Below, one piece after another: positions 9,001 through 12,000 of a stretch of DNA of 64,000 bases. How positions within the stretch are numbered: position 1 is the stretch's first letter; each line of letters begins with the position of its first letter. The position numbers were made by a program. Source of the stretch: Escherichia coli (lineage in GTDB: Bacteria > Pseudomonadota > Gammaproteobacteria > Enterobacterales > Enterobacteriaceae); the NCBI RefSeq assembly GCF_003018255.1, contig NZ_CP027441.1, one strand, 5' to 3'.

Positions 9001-12000
9001 GCTGGCGATGATTCAGTGCTGAGGGAATGGTGCTGTCTAGTGCGGTGGCGGGGCAGCCAGCGTCAGTTCAAGCTGACGCAACTCCCTGATGGCCAGTCGC
9101 TTCAGATGGTCATCGGAACAAAAATAGGCTTCATCCGGCGGCAGACGCTTCCTGAGATACTCTGCCATCTCATGAATCTGCTGGTCGGCAGGCAGTTTCT
9201 TCAGGCGATTAGCACGCTTGCGGGCTGCAGCTTTCGCCCGACGGTGTTTCAGCGCATCCTGGCTGCGCTGTAGATACCAGCGTTTTCTGGCCGCATGCAC
9301 GGAAATATCTTCGTCCTCACGCAGTACACCTTCCCGGATGAGCTGCTGGCGGATTTCACTTTCACGAAGCCGCTTCTGCTGCTGTTCGTGAAGTTTAACC
9401 ATGTCCACACCCAGCATCTGCCACCCTGCCGGTGTTATCCAGACATAACGCGGCAGACGCTGACGGGTTTCACGGTCCCACATCGTTTCTTCTGATACAC
9501 CCAGCACACCAAAACGCACCTGTTCGGCCAGCAGACGGGAAAGACGGGAGACTGTCACTTCAAGTTCCGGAATAACCTTCCCTTTGCTGTCTTTCGGGCT
9601 GATTTCTTTAGCCAGGCGGGAAACACTCATGCCCACGGTGTGTGTACCGGCATCACTGAAGCTGACCAGAACCGGCCAGATGGTATCGAGGAGGCATTGT
9701 TTTTCCGGCCGGAAAGCATATTTGCGACCGACGAACGTCCGTTTCTGCACGTAAAAAGGATGCCGCGACATACGCATACGCAGGCTCTGCTCGCCGGTCA
9801 CCGGGTCCTTTTTCACCAGACGGTTGTAGGCGTGCCCGAGCTGCCCGCTCAGCGCCTTATAGCGCGCAGGACGATACCAGGACGGATTTTCGCATTTGGG
9901 TTTAGTGGAGTGTTCACCACGACGGCGATTTGTGCGCTTCCTTTCCGGTTCAACCAGAAAAGAGATCGCCCTTCCCGTTTCATAGTCTTCCCAGAAACGG
10001 ATCTGCTCTTCGGGTGCTAACTGACTCCAGTGTACTGCGTTATATGGAGTATTCTTCAGACCTGCCACAAGCTGTCGCTTATGGCGGAGCGATTGTGCCG
10101 TGTATTTATACACTGCACAGGGTTGAATCTCTGGTACGGTTTCATATATACTTATCCCGTATTCGTGATGCCCCCATAATCTTTCTCCGGCCCGCCAAAG
10201 TCAGAGGAAAGTTTATGGGGGTTTCGCCTTTATGGTCTTCTGAAACTTTTTTCAGCCTTCCGGCACCGGCAAACTGCCGTCGTTTCTGCCATACGTCCTG
10301 AATGCCTTATGGCGCATCCTGCCGTTTTCTGACTTTCCGGACCGCGAGGATCCCAAAAGCCACTGAATAACGATCCGCAATATACCCCTTTTCCACCGCT
10401 TTGAAAAGCCGACACGATTTCTCTGATTTACCAGGCCTCTCATTAACCCCCTAAAAAACGTCGTTTTTTTGAACTATGTCAAAAAAATAGACAATTCCAC
10501 AAACGATCTTTTATGCTGTGTTTTTCATCATTTTTAGTAGAAGAGATCGCCTAAAATTTTTAAACGATCTAATCCTCCAGACACCGCACACAAATCAGCA
10601 TAATATGCTGCTTTATCAAATATAACGATCTATTCAACTACTTATCTTCGCTCTTGCCACAGATACATCCTTATGTAATATATTTTCCAGCCATTAATCC
10701 TGTTTGCAGGTTTTGTCGGTTTTCGCCCGCCTCGAAACCGTCCACAAGGCTTACAAGAGTGCGTAAATCATGTGCCTGTCAGAACTGCAGGCCGGGCTGA
10801 ACGAGGGTCAGCCGCTGTTTCCGACACATGCTTTATGTATTCGCCGTTCACAACAACATCGAAGCCCCTCTGCGGGGATCGATTTTCGCGGAGCGTTCCG
10901 GATTTTGAATATCAGTGAATTACATCAACGCAACTGGTATCTGGCTCAGTACATCCCTGCCGGCAAAAACCGCGAACATCTCTTTTCCTGGCTTTCCGAA
11001 CAACACGTCCTTCCCTGGACACCCCTGATACTGAAAAAAGTCCGCCGCACGGATAAAGTCTGCGGTTACCGTCGACATATACACGCCGTGTTTCCCGGTT
11101 ACTTTTTCCTGAAAGCAGACCCCGAACGCCACAGCTTCACTCACCTTCGCCGTCACAGTGCCTTTCTGGACTTCGTGAAAATGGCCGGTGAAATCAAAAC
11201 CGTCAGGGAGGATATCGTTCAGTCTTTGATGAAAGTGTACCCAGATCCTGCGCTCAATCCGGCAGCCAGGGAGGAGCTGGATGCTGCCTCCACCCTCTGG
11301 CTGACAAAAGCGCGTTACCAGTACCTCCTCCGGCTTGATGCACAGCCTCTGCCGGAGTCGAGGATCGCCCTGCTCCTGCACCTGGTATCTGATGACGGAG
11401 CGTTGACATGAAAATTGCTGTCTTAATTTGACGACTTTTCCCGGCCTTTATGGCCGGGATTTTTTTCCCTTCTGTTTCCACAATGCCCGGCACCGGTGAC
11501 ACCTTACGGTGTACGGAGAGCGGCTGTCGGGCATTTTTTCAGGACGCCTTTATGACAATTCTATCCCAGGAAAACCCTGTCATTCTGTTACTGGAGAATA
11601 TGCTCGAAGCACTCTCCACCGCCCCGGACAACATAAACAACGAACGGCGTCGCCGGCGTTACCTGCTGAACTGGCTTGACACTGCCCGTCAGATGCGCGA
11701 GTTCAGAGGAATGGCTGAAGAGTTCACTACCCTGCGAAAACTGCTGGCCACCAGTTCAGACATACCGGTAGCAAACACCCTGAAATCACTGCTGGAAAGT
11801 GGCAATAACGCAGCATTATACGACCTGTACCGCTTCCGCTCGGCTCTTGCCGCGTGCAGAAGTCTGGGATGGCAGATTGGCACGTGCGCATGGAACGACC
11901 AGCTGCTGAGTGAGACACTTTCCCGTGCGCAAACAGGTAAACGTCATATCCTGCAGCTGAACAGTACCAGAGACACCTTTTCCACCACGGGCAGAATGCT

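Follow-up and report, generated by a model that had tools for sequence, protein, structure and literature searches.

A candidate pap-like Lrp/Dam element upstream of the transfer activator genes traBC in an I-complex plasmid of Escherichia coli

In a 64-kb stretch of an E. coli I-complex plasmid (hereafter the window, meaning the whole stretch analyzed), three GATC-containing repeats upstream of the NusG-like activator gene traB appear to be the Dam-methylatable members of an array of sites for the host regulator Lrp. Judging from the sequence, we give a probability of about 0.55 to the view that this array is a pap-like element at which Lrp and Dam would compete and which would control traBC. 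The sites resemble those of pap and the Lrp consensus, lie on a regular lattice and are conserved in three plasmid lineages. They occupy the non-coding DNA between the repA control region and traB, as a preliminary description of the region had placed them.

The 8-mer AACGATCT is found at 10502-10509, 10563-10570 and 10624-10631, always on the plus strand, and a search of both strands of the 64 kb returns only these three copies, in agreement with that description. The fourth GATC that it reported, at 10545, is confirmed as an inverted core, reading AGATCG on the plus strand and CGATCT on the minus strand. With GATCs starting at 10505, 10545, 10566 and 10627, the cluster spans 122 bp, less than any other four successive GATCs in the window, despite lying in non-coding DNA of 33% G+C. 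About 0.33 GATCs would be expected in these 122 bp (Poisson P of four or more, ~4e-4), and GATC is under-represented window-wide, with 145 observed versus ~262 in shuffles. Outside the 8-mer, the 61-bp units share 28-38% identity versus the 29% expected from composition; being unrelated beyond the 8-mer, they are not a tandem 61-bp duplication, and what recurs is a short motif at fixed spacing.

Around a match to the E. coli SELEX consensus for Lrp (yAGhAwATTwTdCTr, quoted in PMC5554404), Lrp-type 15-mers are centered at 10511, 10542, 10572, 10603 and 10633, that is, 30-31 bp apart on a 30.5-bp lattice (Table 1). Since the repeats fit this lattice, 61 bp amounts to two lattice steps. The exact 61-bp phasing emphasized in the preliminary description thus holds within the B/O/K/Z-type lineage and results from the site lattice, the spacings of other lineages being different multiples of the same ~10.4-bp period. 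Site spacing of about three helical turns is typical of Lrp and allows cooperative binding; it occurs here, at 30-31 bp, in three lineages as well as in pap.

Table 1. Features of the region from the replication control region to traC, in window coordinates.
Feature	Position	Strand	Basis or remark
repZ-type regulatory pseudoknot, replication control region	10081..10230	-	Rfam RF01087 PK-repZ, 156.5 bits, E = 3e-36
Predicted rep mRNA promoter, divergent from array (TTTTCA, 17-nt spacer, TATATT)	10379..10407	-	consensus scan
GATC box 1, lattice site -3, 8-mer AACGATCT, 15-mer CGATCTTTTATGCTG centered at 10511	10502..10519	+	pap identity, Lrp score
GATC box 2, lattice site -2, inverted, CGATCTCTTCTACTA on minus strand, center 10542	10535..10549	-	GATC 10545-10548, invariant
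GATC box 3, lattice site -1, AACGATCT, 15-mer centered at 10572	10563..10579	+	on lattice; ACGATC invariant in 10 relatives
Predicted consensus Lrp site, central palindrome CAGCATAATATGCTG, lattice site 0, GATC-free	10596..10610		Lrp consensus match
GATC box 4, lattice site +1, AACGATCT, 15-mer centered at 10633	10624..10640	+	8-mer invariant in 10 relatives
Predicted sigma-70 promoter toward traB (TTGCCA, 16-nt spacer, TAATAT)	10654..10681	+	consensus scan only, 9/12
Possible further Lrp-type site CAGCCATTAATCCTG, lattice site +3, center 10695	10688..10702		11/15; 92 bp from central site
Conserved leader with small ORF (MPVRTA...), hairpin ~10868-10893, ends over traB start	10772..10918	+	ORF list
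traB, NusG-family transfer activator, presumed regulated gene	10905..11411	+	Pfam NusG; annotated NusG family protein
traC-like gene, position as R64/pESBL traC	11552..12217	+	annotated CDS in NZ_CP027372.1; gene order as in L012

Read on the minus strand, the central site matches the consensus at 15/15 positions, and read on the plus strand at 14/15; no other site in the 64-kb window reaches 14/15. The GATC-bearing 15-mers score 8-11/15 (11/15 for box 1), near the shuffled background of 8.4 +/- 1.4; they are assigned to Lrp by their position and their similarity to pap. As two relatives break the symmetry of the central palindrome at two positions and keep a 14/15 Lrp match, its interpretation as an RNA or DNA hairpin is disfavored.

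The GATCs, which the preliminary description had proposed to compare across related plasmids, are all four invariant in 10 relatives that are 80-100% identical (four 6-column blocks drawn at random would all be invariant with a probability of ~7e-4), and their 40/21/61 spacing is identical in eight of these. Box 1 is invariant throughout the 10 relatives, the central site keeps 14-15/15 with substitutions mostly at degenerate positions, and every column of the possible further site at lattice position +3 is invariant in the relatives' alignment A1. Box 2 is flipped to a forward TCGATCT in two variant plasmids, and 7-bp tandem repeats of TACGATC, present in two variant plasmids, are reminiscent of the P1 oriR heptamers.

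The window's form of the region is present in ~530 plasmid records and the IncI1 form in ~1,300. Both the IncI1/pESI-type lineage and a Salmonella plasmid whose TraB is 57% identical have a predicted Lrp site matching at 15/15, flanked at lattice positions +/-1 and +/-2 by 15-mers that contain a GATC, and they hold six or seven GATC sites versus four in the window. The offset of box 4 from the Lrp center (+25.5 / +26.5) recurs in the IncI1-type lineage. All GATCs of the three lineages (17/17) are n+0.5 helical turns away from the Lrp dyad, a phasing (R = 0.84 at a period of 10.3-10.4 bp) that 0 of 20,000 random placements matched; lineages tested singly are also phased (P ~0.008 and 0.005), and the three, being homologous, do not count as fully independent. 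A fourth TraB lineage, on Enterobacter and Citrobacter plasmids (TraB ~50% identical), shows no convincing array, and its Lrp-like site differs between the two examples.

Comparison with the actual sequence of the pap region reveals similarity at the level of individual boxes. Box 1 shares 17 identical nucleotides (ACGATCTTTTATGCTGT) with the papI-side GATC box, box 2 (AGATCGCCTAAA) resembles pap AGATCGTCTAAA at 12/13 positions, box 3 shares TTTAAACGATCT with the papB-side box (12/12), and a second, pap-like operon has the same box. The flanks recall those of pap and its relatives sfa, daa, fae and pef, (A/G)ACGATCT(TTTA); the conserved form (A/G)ACGATCTTTT(A) is present in box 1 (AAACGATCTTTTATGCTGT), and in boxes 2-4 only CGATCT is retained. 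The GATC falls in one half-site of a weak Lrp-type 15-mer, just as it does in pap at Lrp sites 2 and 5. The two regions further share a 31-bp lattice (the pap GATC sites are 93 bp, or 3 x 31, apart center to center), AT-rich DNA, a position upstream of regulator genes and an output that, in the plasmid, would include a pilus.

The architecture, however, differs. Whereas pap has exactly two GATCs, in Lrp sites 2 and 5 of six, as one inverted pair, the window has four with spacings of 40/21/61, three boxes being direct and one inverted, and no inverted pair at the 102-103 bp typical of pap (102 bp in both pap and the pap-like operon). The window array is centered on a perfect, GATC-free Lrp consensus site, its presumed target is a plasmid gene for a NusG-like conjugation activator instead of a fimbrial operon, and it is flanked by repA and traB, not by a PapB-family regulator gene and a fimbrial operon. 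A tblastn search of the window for a homolog of PapI (a FaeA-family co-regulator) gave a best E of 0.16; a 79-residue winged-helix protein encoded at 7829-8068 has no FaeA family match in Pfam and aligns weakly to PapI (E = 0.013, pairwise). No PapB-like gene was found in the window by a search that is a weak test. A PapI/PapB pair within the window is thus rejected, neither member having been found.

The surroundings point toward transfer as the regulated function. TraB and TraC are essential transfer activators, and traBC is needed for conjugation in this plasmid cluster (PMC10286972, PMC5801416). The window TraB is 65% identical to that of IncI1, and the B/O/K/Z-type locus lacks the hp1/traA segment, so that no traA intervenes between array and traB. 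In pESI, the module is kept next to traA/traB without an I-complex replicon, homology breaking off right after the rep promoter, and the module therefore belongs to the transfer side. Similarly, in a Salmonella Inverness plasmid typed as IncFIB only, the array precedes traB by ~290 bp, and the 2 kb covered upstream contain no annotated rep gene. An Rfam scan found no RNA family over the repeats, the only hits being PK-repZ at full score and, below threshold, CopA-like and PK-repBA matches to the rep leader.

Promoters on both sides were predicted by consensus scan. The rep promoter receives the same prediction in both lineages scanned and falls inside an invariant block of alignment A1; a GATC at 10372 coincides with its predicted transcription start. 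On the traB side, the TTGCCA element is invariant among relatives, and the scan gives no corroboration of this promoter in other lineages, which makes its position tentative. Since the promoter predictions are weak and lineage-dependent, we make no choice between activation and repression.

From these features we infer that Lrp binds the array, that binding is sensitive to methylation and that a promoter is thereby controlled, be it by activation or by repression. Binding would nucleate at the consensus site at 10596-10610, flanked by the weaker 15-mers on the 30.5-bp lattice. Lrp is known to form octamers and hexadecamers (PMC3584215), and dimers in either assembly could bind cooperatively along one face of the DNA. 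Dam methylation of the GATC half-sites would lower the occupancy of the flanking sites, while bound Lrp would protect the GATCs in these sites from Dam; because methylation would weaken Lrp occupancy and Lrp would shield the GATCs, the promoter region could hold two self-perpetuating states. Passage of the replication fork, or conjugative DNA synthesis, would leave the GATCs hemimethylated and open a time window for switching. Transfer and thin-pilus functions would then be on in only part of the donors, responding to nutrition through Lrp, and a burst of expression in newly formed transconjugants may occur. Two published results count against such a model: in pESI, which has the IncI1-type module, lrp deletion caused no significant change in pilV mRNA in bulk culture (data not shown there; PMC5013300), and in pESBL, transposon insertions outside Hft, and hence presumably those in the GATC cluster, showed no enrichment for high transfer.

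An alternative that we regard as improbable is that the GATCs form a SeqA cluster, in which hemimethylated sites are bound after replication or transfer and a tra and/or rep promoter is transiently silenced, Lrp not being essential. SeqA sequestration is known at oriC and at the dnaA promoter, and these regions and P1 oriR likewise have dense, helically phased GATCs in AT-rich DNA near a replication gene. In each lineage the GATCs share one face of the helix, their density peaks in the window at the cluster, and the IncI1-type lineage has many GATC pairs 19-22 bp apart (the window has one, of 21 bp), in line with the preference of SeqA for same-face pairs up to ~31 bp apart. Most spacings in the window exceed that distance, however, three of the four GATCs lying 40 or 61 bp from their neighbors and only one pair falling at or below 31 bp. 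SeqA requires no particular flanks, yet those of AACGATCT are conserved and match pap, and SeqA leaves unexplained the perfect Lrp site at the lattice center in three lineages. Unlike SeqA clusters, moreover, the module moves with tra genes and not with a replicon. The methylation-sensitive control put forward in the preliminary description, by SeqA or a Dam-dependent switch, is therefore better supported in its second form, through the pap-type flanks, the perfect Lrp site and the shared lattice.

Next in plausibility, and improbable as well, comes the possibility that the repeats are operators of a plasmid-encoded regulator (TraC, TraA or another protein) that contain CGATCT by coincidence, Dam methylation being incidental. 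A short directional motif at fixed spacing upstream of regulatory genes would suit such a protein, and plasmid factors acting nearby are known in transfer regulation (PMC5801416). Yet TraB differs by 35-43% between lineages and the B/O/K/Z-type locus lacks traA at this place, and still GATC is kept while its flanks vary (TCGATC, CCGATC, AGATCA, CGATCG). An operator of this kind accounts neither for the likeness of the sites to pap boxes and the host's Lrp consensus nor for the presence of GATC in DNA that otherwise avoids it.

It is very unlikely that the array modulates the divergent rep (RNAII) promoter and ties copy number to methylation state. The array does lie 100-250 bp upstream of this predicted promoter, a GATC sits at its predicted start, IncI1 has AACGATCT just upstream of the rep -35 element, and insertions in nearby Hft raised pESBL copy number ~2-fold. 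Against this stand the persistence of the module in pESI and in the Inverness plasmid described above, and repZ transcript levels that were unchanged by nearby pESBL insertions. Of the coupling to replication or to transfer-gene expression suggested earlier, the sequence thus favors the latter, pESI having the module without the I-complex replicon.

Hardly credible is an origin by chance or neutral repetition in an AT-rich spacer, since, although an 8-mer present three times in 64 kb is not rare as such (17 of 100 shuffles reached that number) and some 8-mer occurs at least three times in 1.1% of region shuffles, all three copies are equally spaced within 130 bp and invariant amid diverging surroundings, box 1 has the 17-nt identity with pap, and the lattice recurs in three lineages (P < 1e-4).

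A related system in which Lrp and Dam act on conjugation is traJ. The GATC upstream of traJ in the Salmonella virulence plasmid pSLT lies in an Lrp site, and strand-specific hemimethylation has reportedly been implicated in traJ control in a 2005 paper. According to Camacho and Casadesus (2002), as cited in PMC5013300, traJ of pSLT and F-like plasmids is Lrp- and Dam-dependent. The window, with its predicted sites, shares with pSLT the arrangement of a host Lrp site with GATC upstream of a conjugation activator gene, and the proposed sensing of hemimethylated DNA after replication or transfer. In contrast to the window array, the pSLT region has one GATC with different flanks (GTTGATCTATAA) and neither a multi-site lattice nor pap-type boxes, and both the plasmid family and the activator (TraJ versus NusG-like TraB/TraC) differ.

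The Hft (high-frequency transfer) locus of the IncI1 plasmid pESBL affects transfer frequency (PMC4288162, PMC5801416) and, like the array, is a short unannotated regulatory stretch that, in an I-complex plasmid, separates the replication control region from the traABC regulators. Coordinate mapping, however, separates the two: Hft (pESBL 35394-35663) overlaps hp1 directly upstream of traA and corresponds to about 3831-4100 of the IncI1-type locus L012, ~260 bp downstream of the IncI1 GATC cluster (L012 3420-3568), and the window lineage also lacks hp1/traA. The main texts of both Hft papers (PMC4288162, PMC5801416) mention neither GATC nor Dam nor Lrp.

Other candidates were set aside. By inspection, the ATCG-N15-CGAT at 10546-10568 does not fit the half-site spacing of an OxyR-type Dam switch. 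Iterons or other RepA binding repeats do not fit either, as pESI has the module without the I-complex rep and the repetition covers no more than 8-12 nt of each unit; in I-complex plasmids, the origin is found on the downstream side of repA.

A further-reaching idea, tentative and in our view unlikely, is that a heritable Lrp/Dam switch sets the share of transfer-competent cells in an I-complex plasmid population and also reads the strand-specific hemimethylation of conjugation. We infer that the plus strand, on which AACGATCT is read, is the transferred one; it would therefore arrive methylated in the recipient, its complement being new, and the donor copy would bear its mark on the other strand. 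With three boxes pointing the same way, plasmids that have just arrived could thereby be distinguished from those that have just been donated. A transient high-frequency-transfer state of new transconjugants has long been known, and a switch of this type would offer a molecular basis for that state and a mechanism for the transfer burst in new transconjugants. Through the ACGATC boxes, plasmid spread might then come under cross-regulation by PapI-like proteins from fimbrial operons of the same cell.

I-complex plasmids (IncI1, I-gamma, B/O, K, Z and the Salmonella Infantis megaplasmid pESI) are major carriers of ESBL and AmpC genes, and the region bears on the question of how transfer is kept low in established hosts and why mutations located between rep and traABC produce 'superspreaders' (PMC4288162, PMC5801416). 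A host-dependent Lrp/Dam switch ahead of traBC, if real, would explain heterogeneous, nutrition-dependent donor ability and would carry pap-type epigenetic control beyond fimbriae, to conjugation in a second large family of plasmids. Our literature search turned up no paper that connects Lrp, Dam or GATC with the control of I-complex transfer, and no footprint, methylome or expression data for the region; an earlier mention in the original traABCD or O104:H4 methylome papers is possible.

Downstream of the array, the conserved leader at the traB start is present twice in L012 (about 3660-3790 and 4725-4860), where its hairpin is terminator-like.

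On the two strands of the 64 kb window, the octamer AACGATCT has just three copies, at 10502, 10563 and 10624, and each carries a Dam site (GATCs starting at 10505, 10566 and 10627), as the preliminary description had stated. The fourth GATC that it placed at 10545 is present too, and represents the core in inverted orientation (AGATCG; CGATCT on the minus strand). The location claimed for these sites, between the rep control region and a NusG-like gene, likewise holds, with a PK-repZ match to the left and traB to the right. The four GATCs fall within 122 bp of non-coding DNA (33% G+C), where about 0.33 would be expected, and form the tightest run of four in the window; over the whole window GATC is under-represented, with 145 sites vs. 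about 262 +/- 17 in dinucleotide-preserving shuffles. Since the 61-bp units show no relationship beyond the 8-mer, tandem duplication is ruled out as the origin of the repeats, which constitute a short motif at fixed spacing.

Features in and around the GATC array (window coordinates)
Feature	Coordinates	Strand	Remarks
repA	9037-10068	minus	left of array, with its control region
PK-repZ	10081-10230	minus	Rfam match, E = 3e-36
Predicted rep promoter	10407-10379	minus	promoter prediction
Box 1	10502-10519	plus	GATC box
Box 2	10535-10549	minus	GATC box, inverted
Box 3	10563-10579	plus	GATC box
Box 4	10624-10640	plus	GATC box
Sigma-70-like promoter toward traB	10654-10681		weak prediction; between lattice sites +1 and +3
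CAG...CTG 15-mer	10688-10702		lattice position +3; invariant
Conserved leader	10772-10918		right of array
traB, NusG-family gene	10905-11411		right of array
traC-like gene			right of array, after traB; then thin-pilus genes

The space separating box 3 from box 4 contains a palindrome, CAGCATAATATGCTG (10596-10610), whose minus strand agrees at 15/15 positions with the Lrp SELEX consensus of E. coli (yAGhAwATTwTdCTr, quoted in PMC5554404); it is the sole site in the window reaching at least 14/15. In 10 relatives this central site scores 14-15/15, with substitutions mostly at degenerate positions; two of them have lost the symmetry of the palindrome but kept the Lrp match, which argues against a hairpin function. 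Four GATC-containing Lrp-type 15-mers, centred at 10511, 10542, 10572 and 10633, are set at steps of 30-31 bp from the central site, so that the 61-bp spacing amounts to two steps. Inversion of box 2 moves its GATC to the opposite half-site, hence the spacings of 40 and 21 bp (31+9 and 30-9). These flanking 15-mers match the Lrp consensus weakly.

Both the boxes and their lattice resemble those of pap, the P pilus phase-variation switch, for which the genuine papI-papB intergenic region was used as comparison. The pap GATC boxes read TTTAAACGATCTTTTAACCC and, on the opposite strand, TTTAGACGATCTTTTATGCTGT, with their GATCs 102 bp apart. Box 1 (CAAACGATCTTTTATGCTGTG) equals the second pap box exactly over 17 nt, a match whose chance is roughly estimated at 2e-5 for two regions of about 400 bp each; box 3 and the first pap box have TTTAAACGATCT in common, and box 2 (AGATCGCCTAAA) is similar to pap AGATCGTCTAAA. 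The same box type recurs in a second pap-like operon, whereas the GATC upstream of traJ in pSLT carries other flanks. In addition, good Lrp-type 15-mers flank either GATC site of pap in 31-bp steps, and 93 bp (3 x 31) separate the centres of the two sites. The pap family is nevertheless defined by two sites 102 bp apart together with PapI and PapB, an architecture that the array does not have, and no PapI or PapB homologue was found in the window. We file the array as a proposed new form of Lrp/Dam control and not as a pap-family member. About 1 kb past the end of repA, a 79-aa winged-helix protein (7829-8068, minus strand) gives generic MarR/HTH hits and no FaeA/PapI family hit in Pfam, and aligns weakly with PapI (25% identity over 44 aa, pairwise E = 0.013).

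About 530 records of B/O/K/Z-type and I-gamma/K1-type plasmids contain the intergenic region at 80-100% identity. Ten of these were aligned, a comparison that the preliminary description had proposed: the four GATCs do not vary and the 8-mers hardly do, amid diverged intervening DNA, and the 40/21/61 spacing is unchanged in eight. In the other two (L007 from pFNW19M81 and L009 from pA16EC0070) box 2 is flipped to forward TCGATCT and accompanied by three or two tandem TACGATC heptamers in the stretch aligned to window 10543-10570, which brings the GATC total to 6 or 5; the distance from box 1 to box 4 is altered by 7 bp in one of them. Such differences have the look of copy-number variation by strand slippage, and the plasmid carrying the additional unit was typed non-mobilizable.

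Two further types, neither recovered by BLAST with the window's region, carry a comparable array: the IncI1 type, with about 1,300 records including the Salmonella Infantis megaplasmid pESI, and that of a plasmid from Salmonella Inverness, with a TraB of 57% identity. In both, GATC-bearing 15-mers occupy lattice positions +/-1 and +/-2 around a 15/15 Lrp site, and good Lrp-type sites lacking GATC stand at +/-3. Across the three lineages, 17/17 GATCs are offset from the Lrp dyad by n+0.5 helical turns (R = 0.84 with a period of 10.3-10.4 bp), a phasing equalled by none of 20,000 random placements; the window and IncI1-type lineages are each phased alone too. The array is absent from a fourth TraB lineage (Enterobacter, Citrobacter).

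Taking these sequence features together, we propose, with a probability of about 0.55, that the array acts as a pap-like element at which Lrp and Dam compete. Lrp would nucleate at the consensus site and spread cooperatively across the weak GATC-containing sites, with Dam methylation and Lrp occupancy being mutually exclusive. Two self-perpetuating states may result, switching being possible during the hemimethylated phase that follows replication or conjugative DNA synthesis, and the predicted target would be traBC, the essential transfer activators in this plasmid cluster (PMC10286972). Against this reading stand the weak consensus matches of the flanking 15-mers, the lack of PapI and PapB homologues in the window, and the finding that lrp deletion in pESI caused no significant bulk change in pilV mRNA (data not shown; PMC5013300). 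Sequestration by SeqA, which would account for the phasing, leaves the flanks and the Lrp site unexplained and seems unlikely; a plasmid-encoded regulator, quite unlikely in our view, would not explain why GATCs are retained across lineages with different regulators. The coupling to replication suggested earlier is disfavoured, and control of replication is improbable: in pESI the module adjoins traA/traB without an I-complex replicon, homology stopping directly past the rep promoter, and in the Salmonella Inverness plasmid the array lies about 290 bp upstream of traB, which ties it to transfer regulators rather than replication. Chance is the least credible explanation, and a very remote one. 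The array is also distinct from Hft, the high-frequency transfer locus of pESBL, which lies about 260 bp further toward traA; the window lineage lacks hp1/traA. In the main text of the searched papers on how I-complex transfer is regulated, and in that of a conjugation review from 2020, neither Dam nor Lrp nor GATC is mentioned in connection with these plasmids.

The leading-region genes ardA, psiA, psiB, ssb and a DNA methylase gene lie on the minus strand at the record start; nikAB, at the record end, are on that strand too. Since transfer begins with the leading region, which is transcribed off the transferred strand (PMC12672017; PMC7690428), the plus strand, with its AACGATCT reading, is expected to be the one transferred and to arrive methylated. 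The methylase (227 aa; NZ_CP027372.1 13394-14077, outside the window) occupies the same position as M.EcoGIX of pESBL, an enzyme of SAY specificity, of which GATC is a subset, acting on single-stranded DNA (PMC7736820). Should the incoming strand, or the nascent one, be a substrate of the methylase, the post-transfer hemimethylated state of the GATC boxes could change.

A conserved palindrome at 10469-10482 (TTGAACTATGTCAA; TTGACCTGCGTCAA in IncI1/pESI, L012 3364-3377, L012 being an IncI1-type locus), with an A7 run after it, resembles the FNR box TTGAT-N4-ATCAA. A search for a promoter at canonical distance from it found none. FNR activates pilus genes and conjugation in pESI (PMC5013300). 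Further GATCs lie at the replication promoter (10369-10376 and 10349), where ATAACGATCC overlaps the predicted rep mRNA start; IncI1 has a full AACGATCT directly upstream of the rep -35 (L012 3312-3319), a copy missing from pESI.

The 851-bp test region is 100% identical between the window and E. coli plasmid NZ_CP027372.1, typed IncFIB + IncI-gamma/K1. No matching counterpart of the predicted promoter toward traB was found in the other lineages. The start of the 213-aa NusG-family annotation (10770-11411) is probably set too far upstream; its NusG domain first appears around residue 55, and the 168-aa product of other records corresponds to a start at TTG 10905, where the IncI1 TraB alignment begins. 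The leader, of about 130 bp, has a small ORF starting M-x-VRTA, an end overlapping the traB start and a hairpin at about 10868-10893 whose loop contains a GATC. Placed before an antiterminator-like gene, it could mediate translational coupling or attenuation, and an L012 copy has a terminator-like score. The window lineage has one copy and IncI1 two (L012 about 3660-3790 and 4725-4860), one past the GATC cluster and the other ahead of traB.
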